Assembly: GCA_964016885.1 (NCBI GenBank) | Contig: OZ024740.1 | Location: 256,432,001-256,496,000, forward strand | Direction of reading: 5' to 3' | From: Eledone cirrhosa | Taxonomy: Eukaryota | Length of the DNA: 64,000 nucleotides | Part shown: positions 9,036 to 63,715 of the stretch, in pieces | Layout of the letters: each line of letters opens with the position of its first letter | How positions within the stretch are numbered: the first letter of the stretch is position 1 | The notes under the pieces: model-generated | Database searches by the model: none | What the model was told of the DNA's origin: nothing | The model's input: only the letters and a program-made list of their open reading frames with translations | Program-made: the position numbers and the translations under genes

Positions 9036-10760
9036 GGGTGGACGGGAAGCACGGGACCTCATCCCACCCCTAAATCTCTCATGTGGCGCCAAGCACCATT
9101 CCCTGGTAAACCGTTTCAGCTGGTGGACTAAACCATGTGAAGGGGCAGTGTTAACTGGGCGAAGATCCTCCTGATGTAGGTATTTAGCCAGGACGGATGA
9201 ATTCCCAGACGAACTACAATGAACGGATCACCAATGACAATACCAGCTCGATTATCGCTCGGGTTAACTAGGACCACACCATCCGTTGTACATCAGGTCT
9301 TAGGTGTTAATTGTGCAACTGAAATCTCGTCGAAAAAGATCCTTATGAGGAAGAACATCACATCTGCCACATTGGAACGTGAGAACACTTTCCCAACTTG
9401 GCAAACTGCAGGAACTCACAGATTAACTGGAAAGATACAACTAGCACATCATCGGACTTTATGAGGTCAGATGAAAAAATGTCGGTGAACACTTTACCGA
9501 TGAAAGTCATGAACACTACTACAGTGGTGAACCTGACAAACATGTGCATGGCGTACATTTTCTTGTCAACAAGAAGATCAAGAATGCTGTACTTGGGTGC
9601 CACCTAGTATCCAGCAGGCTCATCCCCATCCACCTTCGATCAGCACCATTGAACATTATAGCGATACAAGCCTACGCACCAATTATGGACTATGAGGATG
9701 ATCAGATCGAGGAATTCTACACAAAACTCCAGGACATTATCTATAAGGTTGATAAAAAAGATATCTTTACCATACAGGGAGACTGGGATGCCAAGATGGA
9801 CGAGGATGCACTGAAACACTGGCGGAGATTCTGTGGACCCACCTGTAAAACTGTAACCAACGAATGAGGACTAGACCTGCTTGAATTTGCCAGTTACAAT
9901 GACATGGTGCTTGCTAACATACTTGACGAGGACAAGGTATTACAGTACTGGACGTGACACTGCCCCAATGGAATACCGCACAAGATTGATTACATTATGG
10001 TGAAGAACCGGTTTCGGTCTGGAATCAGCAGGGCCAGAACAAGAACTTTCCCAGGTGCAAATATAGGGAGTGTCAATGACTTGGTGTTGCTGAACTTCAG
10101 TGTCAGGTTGAAGAAGATCATGGAGCATAAGAACACCAGGCTGAAGTTCAACATGAGCAGGCTGAAAGACCCCTACATCGCCAAATCCTTCCAAGTAACT
10201 GTTAGTGGAAAATCTGCAGCTCTGCTTAGACTCGAAGAGGATGTTGAAATGATAACAGCAAAGTTGAAGGCGGTGATGACAGAGTCAGCAAACAACATTT
10301 TAGGGAAACACCAGAGGAAACCTTAACCTTGGGTCACAGAAGAAGTTCTTAAATTGTGTGATACAAGAAAAGAACAACAAAAAATCAAGAATACACCACC
10401 TGTAACACCATCTTACAAAGAGATCAGTAAGAAGATCAGGAAGGGGATGAGGAAGGCCAAAGATGAATAGATAGAGAAGCAGTGTACAGAGATGAAAGAG
10501 TTCTTGAAAAGGAAGAACAGCAAGAGGGCCTTTCAAATTGTGAAATACCTCACAAAACACTATCTACGACATGCAAGGAAAGTGCCTCACGGAAGAAAAC
10601 GTCATCACCGAGAGATGGATAGAATACTGCTCAGAGTTGTACAGCCATGAGACCCATGGAGACCCCAGCATGCTCATCAGTCAGGAAGCATCAAACGAAT
10701 ATGACTTTCCAGTCTTGCATGAAGAAGTGGAGATATCAGTAAAATCGCTGAAAACACAAT
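9036..10760 (+). mobile_element. RTE-clade LINE, 5' region with AP-endonuclease domain; frameshifted and 3'-truncated
   Basis: TWNVRTL-like start, GVHFLVNK, IQAYAP, IQGDWDAK, IDYIMVKNRFRS, PGANIGSVND and ERWIEYCSELY. The sequence stops before the RT. Confidence 0.88.
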
Positions 10761-10764
10761 AACT

Positions 10765-11730
10765 TAACAAACCCAACTAAATTAAGATGAATAGTAAAAA
10801 CAGGCGTAGGTAAAATACATTCTTCAATCCTCCGTTCAACCTAGATGTTTCAACTAAGACACACAAAATATTTTCTTTCTGTTAGATAGGAATTTCCTGC
10901 CAAGACATAAATATCATAAATTAATTAACAAGAACACCATAAACCTATCTTTCTCGACTAATACTAATACAGCCACACACTTAGCATTTAGCTAAAAAGA
11001 CAAAAATAAAGAAACATACGCAATCCTCCACATTGAATAAACTTGTTGAACAGGTTTATGGAATACCTCATTGTAGATGTTAATTTCCATACTGAAAATA
11101 TAAATTTAGACACCAGACCTAATGAGATCATCTCCCTTAACACCATGAATACACAAAGGAATTCTAATAATATAGGTAGGGATAACATTCCCCCAAAATA
11201 GTACAGATATTAACCCAATAAACAATATATCTAACCGCAATGGGACTAAAAACCCACCTAGTAACAACCAACCTAAACAAAACTCCTATAATAACCTTAA
11301 CTGTAATTGTAGAAATAAGGTAAATTACCTACTTAAGAATAGATGCCTAACTAAAAACATTGTGTACGGATGCATAGTAGCTGCAAAGAATACATCCAAA
11401 TTATATATAGGTGCAACTGCCAATAATTAAAAAAAAAAGGATAGTATGCCCACACCCATTCGTTTAGAAAAAAAAAACAACTCAAACATGTAACATCTTT
11501 ACTTAGTGTTGCCTGAGAATTAAAAAGTAAAAATATACCGAACGCATTACACAGGGAATTTTTAACTAGGGCACCCTCATACAGTCCCACAAATAAAACT
11601 TGTATATTATGCCTGTTAGAATCTCAATTAATCATTAAATATAGCCCGGATATCGTGAACCGTATATCTGAAATCGTTACAAATTGCTCCAATAGGCTGT
11701 TCCGATCGTTTGAATACATATCGGTTATCT
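10765..11730 (+). mobile_element. Decayed Penelope-like element (Naiad-type): thumb, linker and GIY-YIG endonuclease
   Basis: FFNPPFNLDVST, HKYHKLINKNTINLSFST, NCNCRNK..LKNRCL, IVYGC..LYIGATAN, YAHTHSFRK and CILCLLES, with stops and frameshifts. Confidence 0.85.
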
Positions 11731-15021: not shown

Positions 15022-15988
15022 AATATTAAATGTTAATTGAGCAAGTACTTTCATGCTTTCGCAATTTTCAGGGTCATATTCTGTGGTGACAGTCAAGTTT
15101 GCAATTTTCAACTGTAATGAGATGGGTAAATTGTGTGCCTTATATACAGTGAAAAGTGGCTACAGAATGCTAGTATTTCGACCAATCGGTGTGTAGTTTC
15201 ACTGGATTACTAAAGCTGATTGGTTTAGGCGTCACAGTTGGTTGAGCATATCTAAAGACTACTATTTGACCCTATCCAAAGCATCAATTGTTTTGCTATT
15301 TTTTGAAATGATGAAAATAGGATTTTCTAGTAATCATCACCATCAACATCACTTTTATTATTATTATTGTTGTTGTTGTTGTTAGTGGTAGTAGTAGACA
15401 TGGTCATAGTCATAGTCATAGTAGGAGTAATATCCCATTATTATTGCTCATTTAGCTTGGGTTTGAATTTATCAATAAAATTCTTTTCTTTGGACTGTGT
15501 AATTTGTAGAATGGAAATATAATAAATATTCTCTGTCCATATGTTGTTAGATGGTCACTCAGGGATATCTAACAGACATTTGGGTCTCTGATTTGCTGTC
15601 GGTGCACCCATGCACGTTCCGATAGTGCGTCTCCAGTTTGACCGACATATAATACTTCACAATTCGGGCATTTAATGCAGTAAATTAGATTTCTGCTTTT
15701 GCAGTTCATATTTGCATTTGGGAATATTTTTCCAGTTTTTGTGTATGGATTGACATGCTCAACCAACCGTGACGCCTAAACCAATCAGCTTTAGTAATCC
15801 AGTGAAACTACACACCGATTAGTCGAAATACAGTTTGCAGAATATACCATTCTGTAGCCCCTTTTTACTGTATATAAAGGCACAACATTTTTCCATCTCA
15901 TTACAGTTGGAAATTGCAAACTTGACTGTCACCACAGAATATGACCCTGAAGATTGCGAAAGCATGAAAGTACTTGTTCAATTAACAC

Positions 15989-15995
<7 letters not shown>
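15022..15995 (-). mobile_element. 5'-truncated PLE: GIY-YIG fragment between inverted pLTR arms of about 230 bp (15022-15249 / 15755-15995)
   Basis: The minus ORF reads NCKSRNLIYCIKCPNCEVLYVGQTG..VHRQQIR. The arms are reverse complements of each other. Confidence 0.85.
15942..15980 (+). ncRNA. Candidate minimal type I hammerhead; mirror copy 15038-15076 (-) has G8A
   Basis: tgacc CTGAAGA ttgc-gaaa-gcat GAAA gtac TT gttca. Stem I has one mismatch. Confidence 0.55.
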
Positions 15996-16069
<74 letters not shown>

Positions 16070-16070
<1 letters not shown>

Positions 16071-17117
16071 AACGGAAAAAATGAAACGAAATTTCAATTC
16101 TCACTCTTAGTACGGCTGTTACTTAAATATAAGTATGCATACGCGAATTAAGGCGTACAGTGTCTAGCAACCATCGTTGCTCATTTGTTCAACACTGACA
16201 AATGAACGCTGTACTAGTTACAAGCTTATTCGCTATCGTCAGCAACGTATACCTTCCTGCCAGATAATTGAACGTCTGAAAGTATATACTTTCCTTATGC
16301 ATATTAACGGCTGAGCACCCTAATTTGCATATCGAGTGAGTTAATCGGCCGGGCGCACCGAAAACGATAAACGGAAAAAAATGAAACGAAATTTCATTTC
16401 TCACTCTTAGCACGGCTGTTACTTAAATATAAGTATGTATACGTACATACATATATGTATACAGACGTACAGTAGTATGTATATATATATATATATATAT
16501 ATACATACATGCACACATATATATATATATGTACGTATGGATTCACTGAACAATTATTATAATGCTCGGTGTGTTTGCAAACAAACATCCCGAATTAAGT
16601 CGTACAGTGTCTAGCAACCATCGTTGCTCATTTGTTCAACACTGACAAAGGAACGCTGTACTAGTTTCAAGCTTATTAGCTACCGTCAGCAACGTTTACT
16701 TTCCTGCCAGATGATTGAACGTCTGAAAGTATATACTTTCCTTATGCATATTAACAGCTGATTAACTCACTCGATATGCAAATTAGGCTGCTCAGCCGTT
16801 AATATGCATAAGGAAAGTATATACTTTCAGACGTTCAATCATCTGGCAGGAAGGTATACGTTGCTGACGATAGCTAATAAACTTGAAACTAGTACAGCGT
16901 TCCTTTGTCACTGTTGAACAAATGAGCAACGATGATTGCTAGACACTGTACGGCTTAATTCAGGATGTTTGTTTACAAACACACCGAGCATTATAATAAA
17001 TGTGCGGTGAATCCATACGTACATATATATATATGTTTGTGCATGTATGTATATATATATATATATATATACATACTACTGTACGTCTGTATACATATAT
17101 GTATGTACGTATACATA

Positions 17118-17120
<3 letters not shown>
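16070..17120. mobile_element. Non-coding retrozyme-like array: two tandem (-) units plus one inverted (+) unit, each with an HHR motif; related HHR-less copy at 34890-35340
   Basis: HHR motifs at 16206-16248 (-), 16653-16695 (-) and 16858-16900 (+). The two tandem motifs are 447 nt apart, and the array is flanked by (TA)n. Confidence 0.8.
16858..16900 (+). ncRNA. Type I hammerhead ribozyme
   Basis: acgttg CTGACGA tagct-aata-aactt GAAA ctag TA cagcgt. Stem I has 6 bp, the core is intact, stem III is palindromic, and the site is GUA. Confidence 0.8.
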
Positions 17121-17209
<89 letters not shown>

Positions 17210-17400
17210 CATATATGTACACACACAGATATACATACGTATATATATATATATATGTATCTATGTGTATGTGTGTGTATAAAATGTAGAAAATTATGTT
17301 TAAGAAGGCTAAGTCAATGGGAAATGGAGGGTAAAATGAAGGTGACGAAAAAGTTTGTGGTATTTATTATTATTTTGTGCCTAAAGTAGAAACAGTTATT

Positions 17401-17579
17401 TTGGCAGTATCGGTAGAAGTCTGGACGCCATGATTTCCAGCATTGTTCCGCTCCGTTATGGTCTGAGTTCAAATCCCGTCGTGGTTAACTTCGCCTTTCA
17501 TCCCTACGGGGTCGATAAAATAAAGTACCAGTAATGGACTGGAGTAATTGCTGACCTTGTGCCAAAAATAGAAACAATT
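17401..17579 (+). mobile_element. SINE family 1 copy
   Basis: Same A box, B box, core and tail as 11867-12051. Confidence 0.88.
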
Positions 17580-17830
17580 ATTATTGTTGTTGTTGGTCTT
17601 CCTAATATTTTGGGACTTACAACTCCTCCACAGAGTATGGAGAACACTCAGCGGAAAATGTTCCGGTCTTATCACTTTGAAATTAGATTTAGATTAAAGT
17701 AGAATGAAAGGTATTTTGTTATTTGTGCACTTCGGTTTCAAATACCACCGACTTCAACTTTGTTTTCCATCATTCGATGAATCGATAAATAAAGTGCCAT
17801 TAAAATACTGTAGTAGATTCTTCCTCATTA

Positions 17831-17960
17831 ACGGCCCTTGCCATTCTGAGTTCAAATCCCGCCGAGGTTAACTTTGCCTTCATCCTTACGGGGTCGATAA
17901 AAGAAACTACTAGTAATGCACTGGGTACTTGCTGGCCTTGTGCCAAAAGCAGAAACAATT
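17831..17960 (+). mobile_element. SINE family 1 copy, 5'-truncated
   Basis: B box, core and tail present. Confidence 0.85.
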
Positions 17961-19174: not shown

Positions 19175-19520
19175 CACACACACTTTCGCTAAGTCATCGC
19201 ACCACACAAACTCACTGTCTATAGCTCTGTCTCTATATGTGTGTGACTACTGGTTAGTGTGTGAGACTCACGATCATAAGGTGGTGGGTTCCATTCCTGG
19301 ACCTATTGAGCTGTATTCTTGAGTAGAATATTTTATTTCCCCTTCTTCCTTCCGCCAGATGTGACCAATAGATAGAATTAGTTATGTTCTTGTAAATAGT
19401 TATTTCTCCAAATTTTCTCAGACATTTAATTCTGAATGTTACTTGTTCATATATTCTCAACACTTATGTCATTATGTCTATTAGTTATTATGTATATGTG
19501 GTCTGGCAGTATCGGTACCG

Positions 19521-19703
19521 GTGGATTGGCAGTATCGGTAGAGAGTCGGACACCATGCTTTGAAGCATAGAGTTACGTCCCTTTATGATCTGAGTTCAAT
19601 CCCGCCGAGGTTAACTTTGCCTTTCATCCTTACGGGGTCGATAAAATATAGTACCAGTCATGTACTGTGTAATTGCTGGCCTTGTGCCTAAAATAGAAAC
19701 AAT
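19521..19703 (+). mobile_element. SINE family 1 copy with duplicated 5' head (19498-19518)
   Basis: Full motif set, preceded by GTGGTCTGGCAGTATCGGTA. Confidence 0.88.
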
Positions 19704-20166
19704 TATTAGTGAAGGAGAGAGTGAGTAAGAGAGAGAGAGAGAGAGAGAGAATGGAAGTGAGAAATAGATAGAGACGTATTGACCCCAGTACTTGCATGGT
19801 ACATTTTTATAGACCTTGAAGGGATGAAACGTAAAGTTGACCTCGGCGGGATTTGAACTTGTGAGTGACCAAATTAGTCTCTGTGTGTGTGTGTGTGTGT
19901 GTGATCAAGTGGTAGAGATAACATTTCCTGAGAAGAAGCGCTCTGCCTGAATTGTGTATGTACAAGTGGTGGTGGTGGTGGATACGTTGGTATGGTTAGT
20001 AGTGGTTGCATTTGATTTAGTTGTGGTAGCGGTGGTGGTGGTGAAACTAAATGAAACGATGGGAAAGAAGGCAGTGTGGGTGCTGCTGGTGTGATGTTGT
20101 GTATGCGTGTGTGTGCTGTGTGCCAACCAACTGGTCTTAAACATATTATAACAGCTTTGCTATATA

Positions 20167-21167: not shown

Positions 21168-21954
21168 GTATGTACGTCCGTATGTATATATACATACGCA
21201 CGTACATAAATAAATACACAGACGCACACATATACACACACATAATCGCACTCACACATACACACACACATAGACACACATATATTGATATATTCATGCC
21301 AGTGTGTGTATGGATATCTGAATGTGTATACGTATTTGAGAAATTTAGCACTGATTGACTGCCGACTATACCTTTGTGGGACACGCTCTAGTAGCTCCCT
21401 TTGACCATTGTCCAAGCTAATGGTGGCGACAAGCTTGACCAGTTGACACAGTGATTGTAAAAGTACTGGCTAGACAGGGCAGCCAATTTTGGCTCCTTGT
21501 TTAAATAGTCTAAACGGCATTACCGTCAACACTGTTATCTCCACCACCAACACCAGCAACAATGGCAACACTACCACCATCAACAACATCACCAACACCA
21601 CAAACAAACCGGCTTCACCATCACCATCAACATCATCATCAATGTCCACATCACCATCAACACCAGCTGTAATCTCAACACTGTCACCATCATCATCACT
21701 TCCAATCTGACCAAGAGCATCACCACCATTATCATCAGTACCACGAACGTCATCATCATAGACGACATCGCCAACATCATAACCACCCAAACCAGCACCC
21801 TCATTGCCTTCACGAGTCTTATACACGTTTATTACACATAAACATACATACACATATACACCGCTATTCTGAATTATGGTATGTTAGTGCTGCTATATAT
21901 ATATATAGAATAAGTAAAAGCGAAGTAGTTTCAGATGTTCAAGTCCTTTAATTA

Positions 21955-22138
21955 TAATTGTTTCTACTTTTGGCACAAGGCCATCAATTATCCAGTGCAT
22001 TACTGGTACTTTATTTTATCGACCCCGTAAGGATGAAATGCAAAGTTAACCTCGGCGGGATTTGAACTCAGACCGTAAAGGGACGTAACTATGCTGGAAA
22101 GCATAGCGTCCGACTCTTTACCGATACTGCCAATCCAC
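21955..22138 (-). mobile_element. SINE family 1 copy with TSD CAAGTCCTTT (21940-21949 / 22139-22148)
   Basis: Full-length copy with a flanking direct repeat. Confidence 0.9.
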
Positions 22139-22229
22139 CAAGTCCTTTTATAATAATGCTGTGATATATATTTCAATGACGACACTGGCCACACTGTTCC
22201 GTGTGCGAGTGTCGTGTCATCATCAGACA

Positions 22230-22303
22230 GCTGTCTGATGATGACACGACACTCGCACAAGGAACAGTGTGGCCAGTGTCGTCATTGAAATATATATCAC
22301 AGC
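22230..22303 (+). ncRNA. Type I hammerhead with extended stem II; mirror copy 22158-22231 (-)
   Basis: gctgt CTGATGA tgac-ac-gacact...agtgtc-gtca-tt GAAA tatata TC acagc. There is a 2-nt irregularity at the base of stem II. Confidence 0.7.
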
Positions 22304-22351
22304 ATTATTATTAAAGGACTTGAACATCTGAAACTACTTCGCTTTTCCGAA

Positions 22352-22888
22352 AATTATAGAGGCTGGGTTCTTAGAGAATTCCAGTAATAATCAGGAACTG
22401 ATTATACAGAGCAATTGCCGGTCCAGGAAAAATTATAAATTAGGATTAGTGCTCTGAAATAGCGATGTATACATGAATGTATGTATAGTATATTTGGCAA
22501 TATACCGTATGTTTAATTAAAAAAATTTTGAAGACCTTGCGCTATCATTTTTAAAGCAGTGAATATGTCACTTCTAATTTTTGCTGGACCGGCAATCGCT
22601 CTGTATAATCAGTTCCTGATTATTACTGGAATTCTATAAGAATCCAGCCTCTATAATTTTCGGCAAAGGCGGGGAGTACGATGCTCTGAGGTTCGCCAAC
22701 AGCGTGAAACAGAATCTCTCAGCTTCTCTCCCTTCTCTTGCCGAAAAAAGAAGTAAGTGACATAGGCACTACTTTAAAAATGATAGCGCAAGGTCTTCAA
22801 AATGTTTTTAATTAAACATACTGTATATTGCCAAATATACTATACATATATACATGTATACATCGCTATTTCAGAGCACCAATCCTAA
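22352..22888. mobile_element. Retrozyme-like family with 313-nt unit: partial tandem (-) plus inverted (+) unit with a degenerate HHR at about 22683-22724
   Basis: Homologous to 49068-49393. The core here reads CTGAGGT..GAAA. Confidence 0.75.
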
Positions 22889-22898
22889 TATATATATA

Positions 22899-23436
22899 TA
22901 TCAACTAGAAATCGATTGACATATATATATATAAAATAAACATATGAAACAATCACAGGGGTTAATTTGTAAAGAGTGTAAGCACACAGAGCTAGGTAGG
23001 TAACTAATTAAAGTTTAACTTCAAACATAGATACCTTGGCTGCTATTTCTAGCTGTCGATAATCCTATTCATGCCACTGGGATGACGCTGGTACGATGTA
23101 TGTATTAAAAAAAAAAAATGCAACACGTGCTTCTAGTCATTCACAGATTTGCATTTGTTGTGTAAACACAGATAGTTAAATCTTCTCCTTTGCTGAAAAT
23201 TCGTATTTGACTACTGTGAGTTTACGGATTGATGGTGAAATATATTTCTTTATTTAATGAAATATATACAAAGGGGATTAATCATTTTTAAAAGGCATCT
23301 ATATTTGAAATTCTCGTTAAACTTTAATTACTTACCTACCTAGCTGTGTGTGCTTACACACTTTACAAATTATTCCCTGTGATTGTTTCATATGTTTATT
23401 TTATATATATATGTGTCAATCGATTTCTAGTTGATA
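22899..23436. repeat. Inverted repeat pair of about 120 bp (22899-23019 / 23316-23436)
   Basis: TCAACTAGAAATCGATTGAC... and its reverse complement. Confidence 0.75.
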
Positions 23437-26624: not shown

Positions 26625-27352
26625 AATTCATATAGCGTCGAAATCAACACAGTGCTGAACTCGCTGCAGAGGCAAGGAGTCGAGGCGCAATACGTTCAAC
26701 TGCTCAGGGAGGCGAGTTCCCGATGCACCACCGACATAGCTCTGCTGTCATCACCCGTATGAGTGCCGGTCGAGAAGGGAGTGAAGCAAGGAGATACGAT
26801 CTCTCAAAAATTTTCACCGCGTGTCTCGAGAAATCATCAGAGGCATTGACTGGCAAGGCGGTGTCAACATCAACCGCGAGATACTTACCCACCTCCGTTT
26901 CGCTGATGACATCGTACTCATCGCTGAAACCACGGATCAGCTTCAGACCATGCTGACGGAGCTCGACATCAAAAGCTCTGCAGTAGGCCTCAAGATGAAC
27001 CGCATGAAAACGAAGTTCATGCGGTCCGACAACGTACAAACAGGTCGAATGGTGGTTTGCGGTGATGAAATAGAGGAGGTGGAGGAATAATTCTACCTAG
27101 GACAAGGAGTGAACATGCGCCGAGACATTAAGAGGGAGATCTCGCGGAGAGTAAGGGCCGGATGGAAGGCGTTCAACGGCATAAGGGATGTGCTCAAGGG
27201 GAGGTTGGACAAGACCACTCGCGCCAACTTCTTCAATAGCACAGTTTTACTTGCAATGTTATATGGCAGTGAAACTTGGGCTACAATGAAGAGAGAAGAG
27301 CAGAAGCTGGTAACGGCTCAAAGAGCCATGGAGAGATCAATGCTAGGAATCT
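26625..27352 (+). mobile_element. RTE-clade LINE, C-terminal RT fragment
   Basis: KGVKQGDTIS, LTHLRFADDIVL, GLKMNRMKTK, YLGQ, MLYGSETW and AMERSMLGIS. Confidence 0.9.
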
Positions 27353-27696
27353 CTGTGCCTCTCCTTTGTTCTGTCCTACGCCATTTTGTAATGGCGAAGG
27401 ACAGAACAAAGGAGAGGCACAGAAACAAAGAAAGGAATCCCCAGTCACTGAAGAGGTCACAGAGTGTGTGACGAAAGAACTATGACAATATATAAACAAC
27501 TATCTGGTTGTGGAACCAACCAACCAACCAGAAATTTATAAATTTATAAATTTATTATAAATTTATTATAATAAATTGAAGTGAAACAACTGGTGCGTGT
27601 GTTTCTTATTGGCAACATGACCCTCCCAAAGTATAACAATATCGGTTTCAACACACGATTTCAGATAAAGAATCTTGCTAAACAAATTCAGAAACG

Positions 27697-27749: not shown

Positions 27750-27760
27750 CATATATATAT

Positions 27761-27945
27761 AATTGTTTCTACTTTAGGCACAAGGCCAGCAATTACCCAG
27801 TACATTACTGGTACTTTATTTTATCGACCCCGTAAGGATGAAAGGCAAAGTCAACCTCGGCGGGATTTGAACTCAGATCATAAAGGGACGTAACTATGCT
27901 GGAAAGCATGGCATCCGACCCTCCACCAATACTGCCAGTTGACCG
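27761..27945 (-). mobile_element. SINE family 1 copy
   Basis: Reverse complement of the family sequence. Confidence 0.88.
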
Positions 27946-28425: not shown

Positions 28426-31197
<2,772 letters not shown>

Positions 31198-31594: not shown

Positions 31595-33900
31595 AGTGGC
31601 AGGGCACTCAGTCGATGAGACGAGTTAGGTAGAAGTGGTTACACAACAGTTAGTTCACCATACCGAGAACAATTGCTTCACCTTAGCGGATCCTCAGCTC
31701 GGAATGGGCATGGTTATAGGAACAGTAAGGATAACCGTACGAACACGCATGCGCAGAAACCCGGTCACTTCACACTGGCAATACTAGACTGCGTGCGAGA
31801 GGTGTAAGGGATATAACTGCGAAAGTCCGAAACGTTTTTAGGTTGAAAATAAAATTACAAAGAATCAGGCCGAAGCCTTGTAGTTATGCAATAGGTGTTT
31901 GGCGACGTGTGGACAACGTGTGAAAAATTCATTTCTCGTGTTTAGGCAATCACTAGCGTAATCTCTTTAGAATAGTTATTCGTTCGTCAATACATAAGCC
32001 ACACGTCAGATTTCCCCCTGCGTATGGCTTGGACTTAGTGATGGCTTTCCATTGATGGAGTAGTCTATACTTGAGTCCTTGAGGGACCATACGTGGCTGT
32101 CGAGTTTCGTGGATGAACGTCTGTCCAGGTACCTGAAGTTAGATTGGTGGTTCGGGAAACGTTCCTTAAATCGACCTTCCGCCATGCCCACTGAGGATTT
32201 GACCTCCTGTGGTTCGTTTGGACGGTTGGAAGTGACTGGAGCTTCATAAATTACAGCTGGTGTGTTGCATTGCTGTTGAAGGGGGCAAGCTTCAGGCTTA
32301 CGGCAAGAACACCCTGGTGGGGTGTTGCTCCTAGGGCTGCTGGTGATGTAGGCCTTCATGTTCTTAGCGCAGGAGTATGCTAGTTTAACTGTGTGTCGGT
32401 TAAAGATGGAGCGGTATTTATGACCTATGGGAAAGTGTCTATCTAAGAGGGCTAGAAATTTTTTTCCTACATTGGTTTTAACGTTGAGTGAAAAGGGAGG
32501 AGAGAACCAGATAGTTTGTGTATTGTTGCGCTTACTTTTCTTAATGGTGTTGTTGCTAGTGGGAGAGTAGGTGATAGGTTGTGAGAAGCCGATGTAGCCA
32601 ACGCCGTGTTATAGTAGGGTGCCGCGCTGTCAAAGATAGCCTTATTAGAGGAGAGGTTTGAGATTCTAGTACTGATATTCTTAACAAAGTCTCTAAAAAC
32701 AGTGGGAGGGTGGCATGAGTCCTTGTGAATGTAATTGAGGTTCTCGTTTAGATTATGGAAGGGTCTGTCAGTGTGTGTGCGAAGGTCTAAATTAGTCTCT
32801 AAGAAATCTACGCTAGAGAAGTTGGTGGCTACTGTTATCCTAAGTCCTAACTCATTGAAGCTAGAAGCTAAGTCTTTTTTAAACCGGTCGAGGTCGTGAC
32901 CACTTTTATGGCTCGATAAAGTCAGCCCATCGTCGCGGTATATTCCCGTGTGGACATCCGGACATCTAACACGTAATATGTCTAAGATAAATAGGCCAAC
33001 CAAGTCACATACGTCAGCACTGTCAAACGATCCCATGGAGACGTCGAATAGGTCTGAAGTTGTAGACTTCTTTTCCCAGGCTACTCCGTCGTTGAAGAGG
33101 AGGGTTTTCCGGCAGTGAGCGATGATTTCCCTGTCTAAACCAGCGACGGTGGTAGCGAAGTCCAACGCTTTGTTAACAGGGTCTCTGAGATCGATGGGTA
33201 AATATCGACAATGTCAAACTGTGTGAACTTCACTTTTTTGGATTTTAAGTAGTTAAACCACTTAATTACGGAGTTGCTGTTCTCCCACTGAAACAGGTTG
33301 GACTTGGTCCTAATGGCCTTAAATATGTTTCTAAGTATGGCCTTACTGACTAGTCCCATATCTGTGCGTGCCGGGTTTATTAGTCTACATGTGGGGTTAG
33401 AAGTGAAGTCTACCTTGTGATCTTTCAGGGTGAGGAACGTCTCTCGCTTAGCTAGATATTGTAGCATCTTATCTACCTTAAGCTCGGTGGAAAGTTCTTT
33501 GGCTTCTGTATTAATGTCGTGGTAGGCCATAGGGTTAGGTTTCTTATATTTAGAAGTAATAGCGTTATGGGCCAGGTGGCGGAAAGTGGTGTTGACGACT
33601 TCGTAAATATTATTAGTTTTGTCGGAAAGAACGAAGGTGTTATTAGAAGACCTAAATTTCTTAATATCATTTCTGAGTTTAGTTTGAAAGGTGTTAGGGT
33701 GTTTGCGAAAGGAAATGTTAGCGACTACGTCAAGAAGGTCCGTCTCGAAAGGAGCAAGTTCAGTTACCGTAGGAGGGTAGGCTCTCAATTTCAGGTTGAA
33801 GGTGTTGTTGGTGCCTGTAATTTTGCCGTTAAAATCTAGGGTTCGCTATCTTAAGCGTCTGACGACATCTTCCGCTTTTTGTAGGAGGAGCTTTTAGTAA
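31595..33900 (-). mobile_element. Penelope-like element (Naiad-type), RT + GIY-YIG, frameshifted
   Basis: FLTLKDHK..CRLINPA, QFDIVDIYPSI, MGSFDSADVCDLVG, IYRDDGL, YIHKDSCHPP, CSCRKPEACPLQQQC (CxCx5Cx5C), VIYEA..VGMAEGRFKER and CGLC. Confidence 0.93.
31658..31707 (-). ncRNA. Hammerhead at the 3' end of the PLE, on the sense strand
   Basis: ccatt ccgag CTGAGGA t-cc-gctaa-gg-t GAAG caattg TT ctcgg tatgg. Stem I pairs 9 of 10 positions; A15.1 is replaced by G. Confidence 0.7.
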
Positions 33901-34784: not shown

Positions 34785-34892
<108 letters not shown>

Positions 34893-35420
34893 GGAAATAA
34901 TGAAATTTCATTTGTCACTCTTAGTACGGCCGATACTTAAATATAAGTATTATACATATATGTATACAGACGTACAGTAGTATGTATATATATACATACA
35001 TGCACACATATATATATATATATGTACGTATGGGTTTACCGAACATTTATTATAATGTTCAGTTTGTTTATAAACAAGCAGCAGCCCGAAACAAGCCGTA
35101 CAGTGTTCGGCAACCATATTAACGGCTGAGCAGCCTAATTTGCATATCGAGTGAGTTAGTCGGCCGGGTGTACCGAAAACGATAAATGGAAAACATGAAA
35201 TTTCATTTCTCACTCTTAGTACGGCTGATACTTAAATAAGTATGTATACGTGCATTCATATGTGTATATAGATGTACAGTAGTATGTATATACATACATA
35301 CATGCATACATATTCGGGCTGTTTGTTTACAAACAAACCGAGAGTATATATATATATTTATATAAATATATATATATATGTTTGTATATATATTATATAT
35401 ATATATGTTTGTATATATAT

Positions 35421-37232: not shown

Positions 37233-38321
37233 GAATAAGGAAAAGCGAAGTAGTTTCAGATATTCAAGTCCTTTAATAATAATGGTGTGATATATATTTC
37301 AATGACGACACTGGCCACACTGTTCTGTGTGCGAGTGTCGTATCATCATCAGACAGCTTGTTACATAATAAGGTTGTTTCCGAGGCTATCCAAATTGTTT
37401 TTGCATTTATTCACTATTGGTTCTGTTCTTTTCTTTTCTTTTGTGTACTTTATGTCTGTTTTTCTTTGATTCTGTTCCATGTGATGGAAATTATGACCGT
37501 GTAACAGATTGATTAATGCCTTGAACCATGTGGTTTGCCCTCCGTTATAATGTACGGCACTGTCGTTCAATATGTGGATAGAGTAACTGTAACACTAGAA
37601 TCCCTCCCAGAACTTATTACTTAAACTTCTCTCTCCATATTATTTACTCACTTCAATCTATATTTTTACTCAATCCGAATTATCACTTTGAAAAAAAAAA
37701 AATCTTTGAATTTAGAATTTTTTAATTTTTAATTGTTTAATTTATAATCTCTGATATTTGATTTAGGATTTTAACTTTTATTTTTAATTTTTATTTCCAA
37801 CTCTCATTCTTAACTTACAATGTAAAACCATAGTACCTAGAATTAAGTTTATTTTCCCTTATGAGTTGATGGTCAGTCTTACTGTCAACGCTTAGTGAAA
37901 GGCAGTATTATGACCTATAAAAACTAACACCCTCCCATCCCCTCTGGCTTTCGGCTGACTGCCACAGTAGTGATGGGTAGCAGTAAACTTTGGCAGGGCA
38001 TAGGTGGGCCACTGACAGCGAATTTCATTGAAATCTGCGGTGCTAATGGTCAACTTCCTTCGGACATGCGCTTGCGCAGACCGGTGGGGGTGAATTTGTA
38101 CTCACAAGGGAACGGATGAAAAACCCAAAAGCACGAACTTCATCCGTTCCCATGTCGATTCAATTTGGGTTGCCTCGGAAACAACCTTATTATGTAACAA
38201 GCTGTCTGATGATGACACGACACTCGCACACAGAACAGTGTGGCCAGTGTCGTCATTGAAATATATATCACAGCATTATTATTAAAGGACTTGAACATCT
38301 GAAACTACTTCGCTTTTCCTT

Positions 38322-38326
<5 letters not shown>
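37233..38326. mobile_element. Element with inverted arms of about 165 bp, each carrying an HHR (37284-37357 -, 38201-38274 +), around about 770 bp of non-coding DNA
   Basis: The arms are reverse complements, belong to the same family as 21905-22348, and are flanked by (TA)n. Confidence 0.82.
38201..38274 (+). ncRNA. Type I hammerhead with extended stem II
   Basis: gctgt CTGATGA [45-nt hairpin] GAAA tatata TC acagc. Confidence 0.7.
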
Positions 38327-38747: not shown

Positions 38748-38798
38748 AGATTCTACAGGACTAGAACTGTTTCATTCTTTAGAAATCATCAGGAATCT
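38748..38798 (-). ncRNA. Type I hammerhead in inverted pLTR (38665-38812)
   Basis: agattc CTGATGA tttc-taaa-gaat GAAA cag-ttctagtc-ctg TA gaatct. Confidence 0.8.
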
Positions 38799-38812
38799 GG
38801 GTATCAAAAAAT

Positions 38813-39548
38813 ATGTTTAATGCATCTGCCTCCTACTACAATGACGCCCTCGCCCGTGGCGGATTTAAAGATAAGATAACTTACCTAGAAACCACCGGAA
38901 GATTGCAGAGGAGGAATAGACATAGGCAGATTAGCTGGTACAACCCTCCCTTCAATAGAGAGGTATCTACTCCGATAGCTAGGATTTTCTTCACTTTGCT
39001 GAAATTACACTTCCCCATACAACATAGGTACCACACCATCTTTAATAAGAACACAATAAGACTGTCTTACTCCACCACACCTAACCTAGCTAGGAATATA
39101 GCCAACCACAATTCTAAAAAATTAAATAGGCCAACCACCTCCGAACCCAATCCCCGGACTGGGGCTCTATGTAATTGCCTAAATAAGGAAGCATGCCCAC
39201 TTGAAAACAAATGCCTCACAAATGATATCGTATACAAATGCGATGTCATCTCAGGCACCGAGGATTGCAAAAAAACTTACATCGGCATGACCTCGAACAA
39301 CTTTAAGACCCGTTGGTATGCCCATACCCACTCCTTCAGAAGACCGGACAAATCAAATCAGACAACACTCGCCTCCTACGTTTGGGACCTCAAAAGGAAC
39401 TCCACCCCCTTCACGCTTAAACGGAATATACTCCAGAAAGCGCGCTCTTACAACGGAGGACACAAGGGCTGCGACCTTTGTATTTCAGAGAGCTACGAAA
39501 TTTTATTCGCCAAGGGCCCGCTACTGAACAAACTCTCTGAACACATTT
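38813..39548 (+). mobile_element. 5'-truncated Naiad-type PLE with an uninterrupted thumb + GIY-YIG frame
   Basis: WYNPPFN, IFNKNTIRLSYST, CNCLNKEACPLENKC, IVYKC..TYIGMT..FKTRWYAH, CDLCISE and LLNK. Confidence 0.92.
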
Positions 39549-40884
39549 AGTTTACAAATGCTGTTTTCGACGGACCAACTCCTAAACAAGAAAGATGAAC
39601 TGGTTACTGCATGTAAACATAGATTGCGTAGGACTTACCTCGCCCTCAAACCCCATAATGACCCGGGGGGGTAGACTAGGGCTATAACACCCCACTTGCC
39701 GATTTTGCAATGGGTAACCCCTGCTTGCCAAGGAAGACGTAAGATCTTCTTTGTATTCTTTTATCGCTTCCTTTATTTCCTTCCCCCCTCTCTCCTTAGT
39801 CCTTCTACCCCAGCTCTTCTCCTTTGTCGGCGTCTTTTCTCGCCCACCCGAGGCTACCCTTTGGCCCCTTGTAGCCTTAGTACCCCCACCCCCTCCCCTA
39901 GTCTATGCTAGATTTGGCGGACTCCGCCCTTTATAGCAGTTGGCTTAGACCCCGGATACTTGCCCCCTTTTTCCGACCGCTCCCACTATTCTCTGTGCCC
40001 TCTATATTTCTTAGTGGCACTTATGCCTTATTTTTTCGTTTCAGTATTTCTTTCTTCGCTTTTCTTTTGGGCGGGGCGGATTCTGAATTTATTTTTCCGT
40101 ATTCTACCTTTATTTCGTGCGAACTTTCATGTAGCTTGTTTTAGATCTTTTAGAGTTAGCATTAGTATATATTTTTCTCGGGACTCAGAATTATTATCTC
40201 GTACAAGTTCACTTTGCTGCACTGGGTGGTTGCTGGCATTGTGCCCGGGATGGAAACCTTTATTGTTTATTTCGTGGTAGTCTCTTTAGTATTTTGGCCC
40301 CTTTTGTTGACCCGTCACCGTATCATTTACGTACTTATACCTCTTAAAAGGGTCCTTGCCTTATCCGTCCCACCTAGTTCTTTTACTTATTTCGTTATTT
40401 CTTTATTTCTTTCTTTACTTCTTTCTTTCTTTATTTTATTCTAGCCTAACAATAGCTAGAGACCTAGGTCGTAGAATTTAATTTACTTTACTTTTTTCTT
40501 TATACTTATTTGCTTTTCTTCACTCTCAGTATTTTTCTTTCCTATATATTTCTACCCCCCATTGTTCTACCTACCGTTCCGACTTCCTCCCCCTCCCCCT
40601 CCCCTGTATCTTCTTTGACCTCATGCCCAGCTGTAGCTGGCACTACCAACGCTTGATTGGGTCTACTCCACCCCCTCCCCTCTTTCTCCTACTGGCAGGT
40701 TTAGCCACCATCTCCCCTACTAATTTGCAACCACAGAATTACTACTGATTTTTGACAATCACTTTGACCATATATGGAATTACCCCTTGAGAAGATCGGC
40801 TATTTAAATACCAGGATAATTTTCATTTAGTCCAGAATTAGCCGTCGAAACGGCTTGAGCTCAGCTGTCGGGGTCTTACTGGTT

Positions 40885-43239: not shown

Positions 43240-46232
43240 CGCTTGTCAGATTCAGGTGTGGGACGCTCGGGTATGGCTTTTAAAGCCTGCTAGAGACTTG
43301 CACTCCTTTACACACTGACGACAACTATGGATCTCTCTGGCTTGAGGTCCTGCATCAGGTTGCCCGTGAACACTCACAACACCATGGAGATCATAGTTCA
43401 CTGGTTCTCTTTGAACATGGCTGCGACTGTGGCTCCTGAGACCAGATTTGTTCAAGCAATTTTTCCACACTCAGGGCACTTCAATTCAATGGAGACACTG
43501 ATAGTTTCGAGAGATACACCAGGGCATTGCTTACGCACATTCCGTTTGACTTTCTGGTGCTCTATGCGTCTGTCCCCAAAATTATGGACCCCATCATTCA
43601 CTATTCCACGCCAAGTTTCTCTTTCAAGAGCTTCTATCTCCCAATCAGCCATCATCAAACCAGTTTTTTTTCAATGAGTCCTTTACACAATCCTTGAATC
43701 AGAGCCTTGGCTTGTGAGATGGTCTCTTACCCTCACAAAGCTCGCCATACAAGAGTTGTTTTGGGATTCGATCATCCTCCATTCTGCAGAGGTGTCTGGT
43801 CCATCGCAAACGCCATTGGTGGATGATACTCTCAATGCTCCGACACTCACTTCTCTGAAGGACCTCAACATCACTCACATGCATCTGCCACTTGATACCG
43901 AGTATCTTTCTGAGACACTGTTGGTGAAACCGTTCCAGTCTGTGGATATGCCATTTTTAGGCAACCCATGTCTCACATGCATACAGCAAAGCTGACAGTA
44001 CACATGCAGCATACACTTTCACCTTGGTGCTCATTGTGATTCCTCGCCTGCACCAAAGACGGTCGTTGAGCCTTCCAAATGACTCACTTGCCTTACTAAC
44101 ACGTAGACCAACTTCTGCATCCAGAGAGCAGGTCACACTCAGAGTACTCCCCAAATACAGAAATATATCAGCAGCCTTCAGCTTTTGACTGTATACGTGT
44201 ATGGAGGGTTCATTGAAAACTTTATCCGGAGCAGGTTGGTACATGACGACAGCCTTCTTCTGACTGATTGTCAGTCCCAAAGCACTGCACGCATTGGAAC
44301 AAGAATCCATAAGGGGTTGCATGTTACTCTGGGAGTGTGCAAAGTGATCAGAATAATCTGCATATAAAAATGTTCTGATCAAGGTACTCAGTACCTTAGT
44401 GTTGGCAGTGAGACGCCTAAGGTTAAACAGCCTGCCGGAAGTGCGATATCTGAGATAGATACCGTGTTGACAATCCTTGAAGGCCATGAAGAACACCATC
44501 GCGAAATACAAAGCAAACAAAGTCGCTGCAGGTATATCACCCTACTTGACACCATTTTCAACCGAGATTGTCTCAGATAGTTTACCTCCATGCCTGCATG
44601 TCATCGTGGAAGCGTTTCAGAATGTTCACAAACTTTTCAGGACAGCCCAATCTCTCCAAAATAACCCACAAAACCTTCCGATTAACGGTGTCAAATGCCT
44701 TGGTCAGATCGACAAAAATTTGGTATAAGTCCATGCGCTGCTCAATGCATTTCTCTTGAAGTTGTTTGGCCTGGAAGATCATGTCAACAGTGCCTCTGCC
44801 ATTCCTAAAGCCACATTGGGACTCAGGAAGTACCTCAACAGCAATGTGCTGTATCAATCTGTCCAACAATATCCTGCACAAGATCGTCCCAGCCACAGAT
44901 AGCAGTGAAATACCTCTGTGGTTGCCACAGTCATCTTTGGCTCCCTTTCCTTTGTAAAGTACCACCATCAATGCATCTTTCCTATCCTGTGGCACATCTT
45001 CTTCATTCCAAACATTCACAAAGAGATCAGTGAGGCGGTTTAAGAAGTTATCACCAACATACTTGAAAATCTCGGCACTCTGTCCATCCATTCCAGGTGA
45101 CTTGCCGCTGTTTAATTTTGCAATGGCCTTCGCCCCCTCATCAAATGAAGGAGGATCAGCCATTGCCAGCTTTGTAGGTCTGGATGTAATCGACCGGATG
45201 AACTCATCATCAATTTCTGATGGTCTGTTGAGAAGCTCATCAAAGTGGTCATGCCACCTGATCAGAATTTCCTTCGGATCTCTGAGCAATTCCTTGCCGT
45301 CCCCTGAGCGAAGTGGTGATATTTGTGAACCGGTCGGACCATACAGCTCCCTGAGCAGACTGTATAGGAGCTTTGTATCATGTCTATCTGAGGCCTTCTG
45401 GATTTCATCAGCCTTTTGGCTCCACCAGGTATCCTGCATGGCTCTCAATCGATGTTGCACATGTGCCTTGATCTGCCTGAAGGTCCGGTCACTCCCGTCA
45501 GAACGTGTCTCACACAATAATGATGTCAGCACTTTTTGTTTCTCTTCAAGTAAGGTCTGGATCACTGGATCCTTTTCATCGAACCTGTCTTTATGCTTTC
45601 TATTGGTATGACCCAAAACTCCAGCACTAACATCATAGACGGTTTTATTCAATGATTCCCAAGTGTTTTCACATTCCACGGACTTAAGGGAACTCGACAG
45701 CTCAGCTCTGACTTTCTCTGTTTTCAGACGAGCCACATTTAGTTGTTTTGGAAGTGCAACCTTCTTCCTCCTTACTTTGGGCTTCGCAACACATTGAAAC
45801 CTGGCGCGCACCAGCCGATGATCAGTCCAACATTCCGCGCCTCGCAATACACGAACCAACGTGATATCCCTGATATCACGTTTTCTCGTTAAAACGAAGT
45901 CAATAAGGTGCCACTTCTTGGAACATGGATGCATCCAAGTAGTCTTGTATTTGTCTTTCTGCTGAAAGAGCGTGTTCCCAAAGACAAGATCCATCTCAGT
46001 GCACATCTGCAACAGAGGTAGGCCATTGTTATTGCACTTACCTACTCCATGCCTGCCCATCACACTCCAAGCTTCCCAGTCATTACCAAAACGTGCATCA
46101 AAATCACCAAGGATTACAATCTTGTCTGCATAAGGTATACCATGGATGACCTCTCTCAAAGACATGTAGAAACTTAGTTTTTCATCATTAGTAGCACACA
46201 TAGTAGGAGCGTACACACTGACCAGAGTCACA
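43240..46232 (-). mobile_element. RTE-clade LINE (APE C-half + RT + C-terminal zinc-finger-like motifs), 5'-truncated with few frameshifts
   Basis: VYAPT, ILGDFDAR, LIDFVL, WTDHRLV, KSPGMDG, RGISLLS, ESQCGFR, FVDLTKAFDTV, LYADY, YLGSTLS, LLYACETW, CPECGK and CRQC. Confidence 0.95.
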
Positions 46233-46405
46233 TATATACATATATATATATAAATACACTTAAGTTCCATGGTTCACCACTGGCTAGAACTGGTCTTGTC
46301 GCATAGTTGAACTTGATGTAATAAGGGGAAAAGCACTCTACATGGCGTAACTTATCCATCTTTGATGTTGAATCCTGTTGGTGGCCTCCTGTCATTCTAT
46401 TCTAT

Positions 46406-46562: not shown

Positions 46563-46616
<54 letters not shown>

Positions 46617-47032
46617 AATTTCGTAGTTCAGAAGAAATACGGTATAGTTTAAAATAAATATTTGGAGAGCCGTAGCTATGCCAAAACACCAATGACTAAC
46701 GCAAGGGGGACAATCGTGGATGCGCATTTCCAATTGAACTGGTTCTCATCAGCACATCCCTCCCACTCCTGAAACTGTTGGACTTTGAAAACAGTCGGGA
46801 ATATATGTTTTTTTTTCGTCTGTGTAAATGAGGTGATTAATCTCATTTGCATATGAAGCTGTATAAGACGCTTCAACTTATAATAGAATAGAATTAAAAT
46901 TTAGCTTCAGGCATAACTGTATACATATATATATATATTGTAGTTTCGTATTTCAGAAGAAACACGGTATGTTTAAAACGAACATTTGGAGAGCCGTAGC
47001 TATGCCAAAACACCAGCGACTAATGCCGTCGT

Positions 47033-47097
47033 AGTTGACTTGCTTGTTCGGAGAGCAGATTTAACTTAAATCTGCTTGCCAAACAAGCAAGTCAACT
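47033..47097. repeat. 65-bp hairpin next to a direct repeat of about 90 bp (46612-46702 / 46937-47026)
   Basis: AGTTGACTTGCTTGTT..GCAGATTTAA C TTAAATCTGC..AACAAGCAAGTCAACT. Confidence 0.7.
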
Positions 47098-47459
47098 CCG
47101 ATCGATCTTTTAAGTCTCTCAGGGATATTCCTTTGATAATGTGTTTTTTAAAATATTTGGGATTATCAAATTTGCTAAGGTAAGATCTTTGCAATCTTGA
47201 TTTTCTTTTTCCTATGCATTGTATGGTTTCCTATTCAACAAAGGTTCAAGCAAACTACAACACTCTGCTATATATATATGTATATAAATATATATGAAAA
47301 GTTCGGGACCCCGATGTCTGAGCTCCTGCTGTTTCAACAGCTAGATCTGAACATAGCTGTTGAAATGGCAGGAGCTCAGCCGTCGTGGTCCTGAATTGTT
47401 CATATTACTCACTCCAAGTATTCCAAGTATTCGAGTTCTCTGGTGTGTATTGTCTAACT

Positions 47460-49067: not shown

Positions 49068-49393
49068 TAGGATTGGCGCTCTGAAATAGCGATGTATACA
49101 TGAATGTATATATAGCATATTTGGCAATATAGTGTATGTTTAATTAAAAACATTTTGAAGACCTTGCGCTATTATTTTTAAGTAGTGACCGTGTCACTTC
49201 TTTTTTCAGCAAAAGAAGGGAGATAAGCTGACAGATCTGTTTCACACTGCTGGTGTTCATCAGAGCCTAGCACTCGCCGACCTTTGCCAACAATTATAGA
49301 GACTGGATTCTTATAGAATTCCAGTAATAATCAGGAACTGATTATACAGAGCGATTGCCGGTCCAACAAAAATTGAAAATTAGGATTGGTGCT
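49068..49393 (-). mobile_element. Retrozyme-like monomer (313-nt period) with an intact HHR
   Basis: TAGGATTGG(C/T)GCT recurs at 49068 and 49381. Homologous to 22352-22888. Confidence 0.8.
49225..49268 (-). ncRNA. Canonical type I hammerhead ribozyme
   Basis: aggct CTGATGA acac-cagca-gtgt GAAA cagatctg TC agctt, with a GUC site. Confidence 0.87.
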
Positions 49394-49429
49394 TATTAGG
49401 ATTTTAATCTTCACATTTATTATTATTAC

Positions 49430-49599: not shown

Positions 49600-52245
<2,646 letters not shown>

Positions 52246-52984
52246 TATAATAACTTGTGTGTTACACCTCTATTCTTTTAACTATATATATATATATATA
52301 CATATGTATGTATATATATGCCGTACAATGTCATGAAACCTGAAATGTTGTTACTATCTTAGATCATATATTAAAAACTTCTCGTACTTGGCCATTAAAT
52401 TACACATAGATATTTTTGTATGTGACGTATGAAAAATCTTTAAGATCGCATGGGAAATATACAATCACGAATGAAGGTGTTCATTTGTAAAGCATGTCCC
52501 AGGCACTGCAATCATCGTGATGTGTCCTCGATTTCTCTTGGCAGGCCACATTTTGCGTCTACTAGACATTCGGCCCGCAAGGATTTGCAATGTCATGGAC
52601 ACTGGTGAGAACTATGACTAAAATATATGTAAAGGAAATCAAAGGATTGCAAAAGTTTCAGGGTCCTTGTGATCAAGATGGTGGACGAATTATACGGGAG
52701 GTTGTCGAAGAAAACTCATTGAGAGAGGTACTCTTGCTCGCGAGGTTTCTTCTTGTAAATCATTGCTTGCTGAACATTCCATACGAAGGATCTTTTTTAA
52801 CGAAATGAATTTACCTCAACTCCTCATTGTCATTAATTCTCTCCTAGATTGTTTTATAGTTAGAATAACAATCGAAACAGAGAAATATTTATACTTAGAA
52901 AAGAATGGATATCCAATGGTTGTATCACAAGGAACTTGAAGTTTTTTTAAGTTAGCTCAGGGTCTCCTTAGTGGATCTACTGAG

Positions 52985-60897: not shown

Positions 60898-61080
60898 TGA
60901 ATTGGCAGTATCGGTGAGGGTCGGACGCCATGCTTTCCAGCATAGTTACGTCCCTTTACGGTCTGAGTTCAAATCCCGTAGATGTTAACTTTGCCTTTCA
61001 TCCTTACGGGGTCGATAAAATAAAGTACCAGTAATACACTGGGATAATTTGCTGGCCTTGTGCTAAAAGTAGAAACAATT
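60898..61080 (+). mobile_element. SINE family 1 copy
   Basis: Full motif set; possible TSD ATTATATT. Confidence 0.9.
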
Positions 61081-61711
61081 ATATTAGTTAGTGTTTTCGT
61101 TCTGTAACCATTATGTTAAATGAGTTTTTAAAAAAAGAGTTAATAAATAAATAAAACGTTATACTTGTTTTACACTCCCATTTCCAATTCACCGAACGCT
61201 ATCATAACTGTATGTGTGTGTTTGTGTAAATGTATATGTGTGAATGAATGTATGTTTGTGTGAAAGTATGTGTATTTATGTGAATTATGTACGTGAGAGT
61301 GTATTTTTTATAAGTTTGTGTTTGCGCGATTATAGATATATACTCATAATAGTTATATACTCATACATATAAATGTATGTCCACACTCATACGCGTCAGC
61401 GTGTAGAAAATCATAATCTCTTTATCTCTCTCATCACACACTTTCTCTTTCTATATATATGGTAGTTGAAGTGGTGTTGGTGGTGACGATATACCGGAAG
61501 TGCAACTTTGAAAAGAAGTCAATTTGAAATTATTTATTTTTACGAAATTATTTTTTTTTACGAAATTGTGTACATAAATTATGTAATAAAGTAATCCAAC
61601 TTACAGTTTACTAACTGGATTAAAAGAAATAAACCGCACGCAGTCCCGCAGATCTTCCTTTATTATAATTTAGATGATAGCTTGTCAGTATATAAGCACA
61701 GACACACACAC

Positions 61712-63337: not shown

Positions 63338-63525
63338 AGATCAAAAGATGGTTAAAGGAGTTCAATGTATTTTATTATGCGCATTTCAAAAACAAACATC
63401 ATCATGCAATAATATTTGTGTTTTCATCAGATAAAACAGGAGAACATGATATGAAGGCTACATATATATATATATATAGATGAGATTCTGCAGGACTAGA
63501 ACTGCTTCAATATTTAGAAATCATC

Positions 63526-63692
63526 GGTAGAGGGTCAGACGCCATGCTTTCCAGCATAGTTACGTCCCTTTACGATCTGAGTTCAAATCCCGCCGAGGTT
63601 GACTTTGCCTTTCATCCTTACGGGGTCGATAAAATAAAGTACCAGTAATGCACTGGGTAATTTTCTGGCCTTGTGCCTAACGTAGAAACAAT
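63526..63692 (+). mobile_element. SINE family 1 copy with 15-bp TSD TATTTAGAAATCATC, splitting a (-) hammerhead
   Basis: TSD at 63511-63525 and 63693-63707. Confidence 0.9.
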
Positions 63693-63715
63693 TATTTAGA
63701 AATCATCAGGAATCA

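Follow-up and report, generated by a model that had tools for sequence, protein, structure and literature searches.

Organization of the array

The window, i.e. the whole 64-kb stretch of Eledone cirrhosa DNA that was analysed, contains a small array of three partial copies of a repeat with (TA)n on both sides. Two copies are arranged head-to-tail on the minus strand, the third is inverted, and each carries one type I hammerhead (HHR) motif with one or two lesions (H1, H2 and H3 from left to right). A coding remnant of a Penelope-like retrotransposon (PLE) is located next to the array, and a second locus of the array's own family was found at higher coordinates of the window. The features are:

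15023..15995 (-): coding PLE remnant, 5'-truncated, with a C-terminal GIY-YIG endonuclease (15450-15742), stops and a frameshift; tail-to-tail with the array across (TA)n
15992..16069 (no strand): left (TA)n target tract, common to the array and the neighbouring PLE remnant, which lie tail-to-tail
16070..16368 (-): 3'-terminal (left) copy, 299 nt; 22-nt 5' segment, HHR region and 3' end present
16206..16248 (-): H1, type I HHR; A13U lesion (GUAA), shortened stem II, U10.1-U11.1, predicted cleavage 3' of 16212
16212..16658 (-): predicted cleavage-to-cleavage monomer, 447 nt, 35.6% GC, predicted to be self-paired
16369..16761 (-): middle copy, 393 nt, 5'-truncated by ~54 nt; joined to the left copy in head-to-tail orientation at 16368/16369
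16427..16545 (no strand): internal (TA/TG/CA)-rich, microsatellite-like segment of the unit; long hairpin in the predicted fold
16653..16695 (-): H2; A9G lesion (CUGACGG), U10.1-U11.1, predicted cleavage 3' of 16659
16760..17122 (+): inverted, 5'-truncated copy, 363 nt; head-to-head with the middle copy, with a 2-nt GA microhomology at 16760-16761
16858..16900 (+): H3; conserved core bases all intact, stem II C-A mismatch, U10.1-U11.1, no same-strand partner
17123..17264 (no strand): right (TA)n target tract
34890..35345 (-): second locus of the 447-nt family; same 3' end on (TA)n and same tandem junction (~35184)

The core of H1 begins at 16242(-), that of H2 at 16689(-), at a distance of 447 nt, and that of H3 at 16864(+). 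The inverted arms are 95% identical over 336 columns. The earlier note on this DNA had described a tandem plus inverted array with one HHR per unit, two of them on the same strand at a distance of 447 nt and the third in an inverted unit, and all of this was found. Its monomer of about 447 nt agrees with this spacing, but none of the copies (299, 393 and 363 nt) is a complete unit; 447 nt is a permuted stretch between the cut sites (16658 to 16212), and the head-to-tail template amounts to ~1.9 units. TRF reported no array of 447-nt period. The internal (TA)n that had been ascribed to the unit is present as a (TA/TG/CA)-rich segment in the middle copy but not in the left copy, which lacks a 147-nt microsatellite segment (deletion point 16143/16144, with a CG microhomology). 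The inverted copy lacks ~22 nt at its 5' and ~50 nt at its 3' end. The left end of the array is ~50 nt longer than the right one, which could stem from the one-sided tail of 30-40 bp of PLE insertions or from subsequent loss into (TA)n. Both outer ends run into (TA)n, where no target-site duplication is readable; where non-LTR retrozymes have such a duplication, it is longer than 4 bp. Over the ~170 common columns, leaving out two columns past the inversion junction, private changes number 4, 4 and 3 in the three copies, with one three-way site in addition; decay amounts to ~2-3% per copy. The near-equal branch lengths of the three copies fit a single insertion event followed by neutral decay.

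Hammerhead motifs

In H1, H2 and H3 alike, a core of the CUGACGA type is combined with a short stem II, GAAA and the ACUAGU palindrome, and the cleavage triplet of each is GUA. Stem I has 6-7 contiguous pairs and a predicted internal loop; in the mussel retrozymes described in PMC7229834, most canonical contacts between loop 1 and loop 2 are missing. Since helix III consists of the ACUAGU palindrome only, a dimer is needed, and helix III palindromes are described to permit cleavage as a dimer (PMC4209133). The lesions are located at 16220 (H1, A13U), 16683 (H2, A9G) and 16881 (H3, C-A in stem II). That each copy carries a different single lesion (GTAA, CTGACGG and a stem II mismatch) had been recognised before and the three changes are as described, but H1 has a second change at 16231 which shortens stem II. 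The stems of the consensus had also been taken to be paired; this has to be corrected, because U10.1-U11.1 is found in all three HHRs and the majority state of stem II is thus not fully paired. U-U is described as the best-tolerated mismatch at the base of helix II (PMC3088659) and is also found in the axolotl retrozyme HHR_Amex2, with better cleavage as a dimer (PMC7229834; PMC3088659). Mutations of the HHR core are generally regarded as making HHRs non-functional, as stated in PMC3088659.

The HHR motif of the unit is beyond chance. An HHR descriptor gave no match in 3000 shuffles of the unit and six matches in the whole window, compared to a mean of 0.375 (maximum 2) in 40 block shuffles. 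The descriptor was written after the motifs had been seen and was relaxed from a stricter form that missed H3 and both HHRs of the neighbouring PLE remnant; moreover, H1, H2 and H3 are copies of one motif and not independent matches. No hammerhead family was among the 47 Rfam matches at E<=10 over 16072-17020, nor was one among the 150 matches listed, out of 240, for the whole window, which were mostly microsatellite-driven miRNA matches.

Coding capacity and composition of the unit

The longest ATG frame of the unit has 64 aa and the longest stop-free stretch 77 aa, wrap-around included, so that the unit contains no real ORF, in line with what had been noted before. By tblastn, neither a PLE RT-EN protein nor three peptides from the Hydra-type PLEs of the window had a match in the array, and the RT plus GIY-YIG ORF that characterizes autonomous PLEs is absent from it. 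An exact 26-nt pattern had no matches in prokaryotic genomes, which was expected and is uninformative.

The motif ATGCAAAT, which we take to be the octamer of newt satellite 2 promoters, is found at 16323-16330, 16776-16783 and 35138-35145, i.e. in all three copies that span this segment, ~110 nt upstream of the cut site. An snRNA-type promoter based on this motif is not supported: the window has 8 matches compared to 5.8 expected, at least 8 were found in 25 of 100 shuffles, and no relevant literature was found.

PLEs and further HHR families of the window

The PLE remnant next to the array is bounded by inverted terminal repeats. Both of these carry one type I HHR (15071-, 15947+), which has U10.1-U11.1 and a palindromic helix III. 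Its layout is the same as that of the array and its HHRs are similar, but it has no DNA similarity to the unit at E<0.01. The endonuclease matched the C-terminal GIY-YIG domain of an RT-EN protein in tblastn (62% identity, E 9e-29); this protein has a CX4CXXC linker and is Neptune/Nematis-like. Altogether, five coding PLE remnants are present in the window. The one at 49601-52246 is a young inverted insertion whose arms are 99% identical over 946 columns; it contains a GIY-YIG remnant (50590-51024) and several microsatellites in its 3' region, and a relaxed scan found no HHR core in it. The other three are located at 32006-33845(-), 38783-39550(+) and 10784-11672(+); a DKT motif, as described for the Hydra clade, is found in the first of them, and the endonuclease region of this remnant is matched by the second and third. 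Downstream of 32006-33845 and 38783-39550, no HHR core was found.

A wider scan of the window, in which pairing of stem II was not required, revealed nine perfect-core HHR motifs of six families, compared to none in 200 shuffles. A second non-coding HHR monomer family of ~321 nt has copies at 49070-49395 and 22342-22890. The former lies between (TA)n tracts and comprises one unit whose ends are redundant over ~15 nt; it has an intact core (49263(-)) and a z of -4.0, and is a better bench candidate than the 447-nt array. The latter shows a tandem plus inverted layout, and its HHR is degenerate. The HHR-like unit of ~325 nt at 46615-47101 (core 46752-), whose stem II is not predicted to fold, forms a partial tandem; (TA)n marks the junction, and a short inverted repeat lies at the 5' side of the unit. 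Another family (22140-22330, 37233-37397 and 38161-38325) has a perfect core, a branched stem II of 45 nt and the palindrome ATATATAT; its copies are 95-98% identical and form a head-to-head palindrome and also inverted ends that are 763 nt apart without an obvious ORF between them. Finally, a single perfect-core motif with a long stem II is located at 63430(-), in a short fragment between (TA)n tracts.

A second locus of the 447-nt family

Masked blastn with the unit as query returned two loci of the window at E<0.01, the array and the second locus, and an intact HHR pair is missing from both. The second locus (34890-35345) is 19 kb away from the array and 81-88% identical to the array family. 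A deletion of 128 nt takes out its HHR, its 5' truncation differs from that of the array, and it has its own short inverted piece of ~30 nt (35314-35343). A partial tandem with an adjacent inverted 5'-truncated copy is thus present at both loci, and all four outer ends run into (TA)n, which is weak evidence by itself since the window is TA-rich. At both loci, the 3' end of the unit joins the same 22-nt segment, and this segment is directly continuous with the HHR region, without an intervening ORF. This junction, which leads into the HHR region without coding sequence at either locus, is the main evidence that a closed monomer moved as a unit; as judged from the sequences of these two loci only, it favours a family of closed, non-coding monomers over the stub of a coding element.

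The array could also be explained as the pseudo-LTR (pLTR) stub of a coding PLE whose 5' truncation was so extensive that no ORF remained, the unit never having been mobile alone. The layout of the array is indeed that of the coding neighbour at 15023-15995 and of the PLE at 49601-52246, the 3' region of which also contains internal microsatellites, and truncated PLEs with paired opposite-strand HHRs 100-700 bp apart are described in PMC4209133. We nevertheless regard this explanation as rather unlikely, because the same 22-nt junction at both loci leads into the HHR region without an ORF, coding similarity is absent from both loci and a Hydra-type ORF located 1 kb from the second locus does not have the unit at its own 3' end. 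The possibility that the unit is the pLTR of this Hydra-type ORF or of the PLE adjacent to the array was rejected, as it has no DNA similarity to either, and a search for a partner PLE by masked blastn (E<0.01) gave no match of the unit to PLE ends inside the 64-kb window. The earlier note had named a unit that only ever occurs attached to coding PLEs, as a plain pLTR, as a finding that would speak against a retrozyme; no coding PLE sequence is joined to the unit at either locus of the window. The note sets retrozyme and pLTR against each other, but animal retrozymes are proposed to be derived from PLE pLTRs in a 2026 preprint (bioRxiv 10.64898/2026.07.22.740005) and the inversion and (TA)n of the array are marks of PLE insertion.

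The recurrence of the tandem junction and of the 3' end 19 kb away also argues against a solo HHR-bearing repeat that was duplicated and folded back locally as DNA, by slippage or recombination among microsatellites and with no RNA step. Microhomologies of 2-3 nt at the junctions and the very microsatellite-rich region would fit such a history, but tandem plus inverted layouts are found in two other HHR families of the window as well, and we consider it improbable. With two further non-coding families (~321 and ~325 nt) in this layout, the arrangement is common in the window. Besides, the inverted arms of ~340 bp with 95% identity and the TA flanks are reminiscent of a DNA transposon of the fold-back or MITE type, bounded by long inverted repeats, that inserted at TA. 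Such an origin is extremely improbable: an extra tandem copy is present on one side, the ends are unequal, the HHRs point outward, the inverted arm of the second locus has only ~30 nt, and the two loci differ in 5' truncation but have a fixed 3' end.

Predicted folds and activity of the locus

The monomer is predicted to be strongly folded, with z of -6.4 as a circle, -7.6 as a linear molecule and -3.5 with the microsatellite held fixed. For the short 300-nt unit without the microsatellite segment, z was only -1.9, and the HHR domains folded alone gave -0.5 to -2.6. Among 12 random microsatellite-free stretches that served as control, 10 had z between -1.3 and +1.1; outside this range were two, namely the array, at -4.4, and a region of tandem repeats, at -3.3. 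The HHR core was not adopted in unconstrained folds. The double hammerhead fold of H2 and H1 was calculated to have -173.9 kcal/mol, compared to -177.1 kcal/mol for two monomer folds and -181.9 kcal/mol for the unconstrained fold, so that the model allows H2 and H1 to fold together in this way. In a transcript of the whole array, the inverted arms are predicted to pair as a ~340-bp duplex that covers H2 and H3.

A same-strand HHR pair one unit apart, intact GUA sites in both and a dimer fold that is feasible in the model would be in accordance with an array locus that is itself an active retrozyme and releases and circularises the 447-nt monomer. This is very improbable: A13U and A9G affect conserved positions in the two tandem cores, a read-through RNA is predicted to be trapped in the duplex described above and no promoter was identified at the array. 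In a double hammerhead, each catalytic centre relies on its own core. Since both tandem cores are mutated, release of the monomer, and with it of a circle, from the array locus is unlikely as far as its sequence can tell. Of the retrozyme-like release of a unit-length RNA that had been proposed before, the assignment to a retrozyme-type family is supported, but release by this locus is not.

Proposed origin of the array

We think that the array probably goes back to one old insertion, now decayed, and that the inserted element was non-autonomous and non-coding, had 447 nt, belonged to the non-LTR retrozyme type and was pasted in trans by a PLE reverse transcriptase-endonuclease. A retrozyme-type family is supported by the sequence features, i.e. 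a non-coding unit with 36% GC, a closed 447-nt monomer with one type I HHR, its predicted self-pairing and a junction common to two loci. PLE insertions are described to be marked by partial tandems, by an inverted and 5'-truncated copy next to them, by a tail of 30-40 bp at one end only and by a bias for (TA)n or microsatellites, and non-autonomous PLEs are known (PMC8557442).

In the model that we propose, an intact master array elsewhere would be transcribed, and two HHRs would pair via their ACUAGU palindromes and cut after GUA. A host ligase may close the monomer into a circle; circularisation of retrozyme monomers by RtcB in vitro is described in PMC7229834. The PLE endonuclease would nick (TA)n, and the reverse transcriptase would start at a fixed point ~290 nt downstream of the cut site and copy more than one unit, which would require a circular template, a multimer left uncut or a jump between templates, three routes that the sequence cannot separate. 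The inverted copy may have been added by a PLE-type 5' event. The copies would have decayed after insertion, so that the array locus is probably inactive. In the 2026 preprint, only one of nine predicted retrozyme dimers cleaved, and an HHR motif thus does not imply activity. The more general idea that the genome harbours several independent families of small, circRNA-forming HHR monomers that are copied from circles by PLE proteins is possible, although we put it forward as a tentative one that we doubt more than we trust.

Comparison with known elements

In metazoan non-LTR retrozymes (Cervera and de la Pena 2020), units have 350-390 nt in mussels and 353 nt in the axolotl (HHR_Amex2; PMC7229834). 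The unit described here resembles them as a non-coding head-to-tail repeat in the range of 150-450 bp with a GC content below 50%, no apparent LTR/PBS/PPT organisation and one type I HHR per unit, as judged by the 447-nt spacing, the 35.6% GC and the junction of two loci, with ~1.9 units in the array. Short palindromic helices III, a predicted self-paired monomer and, as in HHR_Amex2, U-U at the base of helix II are further similarities. Unlike these retrozymes, the array has only ~1.9 units and every HHR is damaged; further differences are the inverted copy in head-to-head orientation, the (TA)n at the ends and the microsatellite inside the unit. The words "inverted" and "microsatellite" are absent from the main text of PMC7229834. 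Active retrozymes are recognised by two consecutive complete HHRs in the 2026 preprint, a definition that excludes the array because of A13U in H1 and A9G in H2.

With the non-autonomous PLE derivatives of the same preprint, the array shares a non-coding head-to-tail unit, a PLE-type layout and the presence of coding PLEs in the same genome, but no homology to the pLTR of an autonomous family was found within the 64-kb window. MRC1-type non-autonomous Chlamys is another non-autonomous PLE derivative (PMC8557442). The array is also similar to the pLTRs of PLEs with a C-terminal endonuclease (Neptune/Nematis; Cervera and de la Pena 2014, PMC4209133), in the type I HHR, the palindromic helix III and the need for a dimer as well as in the partial tandem with an inverted 5'-truncated copy and the microsatellite target. 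It differs from them in the absence of an RT/EN ORF, and its HHRs have neither the G10.1-C11.1 pair nor the extra base after A9 of the minimal PLE HHRs described there.

As a locus, the array is ordinary debris in a window with nine perfect-core HHR motifs of six families and five coding PLE remnants; its value lies in its use as evidence. In the retrozyme papers considered, PLEs were proposed as mobilising partners from co-occurrence and pLTR homology. This proposal predicts a footprint such as the one seen at the two loci, where a non-coding HHR monomer is combined with a 5' inversion, a fixed 3' end and a target in (TA)n. The mobilisation of animal retrozymes by PLEs and circular templates as the source of PLE tandems are both claims that are still unproven. 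If circles are indeed copied, this process would have left its footprints directly in the genome, namely the fixed internal start ~290 nt from the cut, the copy of more than unit length and the inversion at the 5' side in (TA)n, and if intact masters are expressed as circles, a further host and family would become available for testing circle-templated retrotransposition. The added value is modest and consists of PLE insertion marks on a retrozyme-type monomer, which are not discussed in the texts of PMC7229834, bioRxiv 10.64898/2026.07.22.740005 and PMC7761336 that were searched for "inverted". In the openly readable papers on PLEs, hammerheads and retrozymes of octopus and other cephalopods and on non-autonomous inverted HHR tandems, no description of the 447-nt family was found.

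Other repeats of the window

A SINE-like repeat of ~180 nt, presumably of the octopus type, is present in more than 10 copies (17400-17960, 19520-19710, 21950-22130, 27760-27930, 60900-61090, 63520-63700 and others). LINE remnants (AP-endonuclease/RT) are located at 9475-10326, 26785-27471, 28440-30900 and 43957-46273; the frame at 44582-46273 has homologues in diverse animals with identities of up to ~51% over the full length. Furthermore, an inverted repeat with arms of ~140 nt was found at 22902-23433, and a near-perfect hairpin of 80 nt (27348-27427) lies inside a LINE frame.
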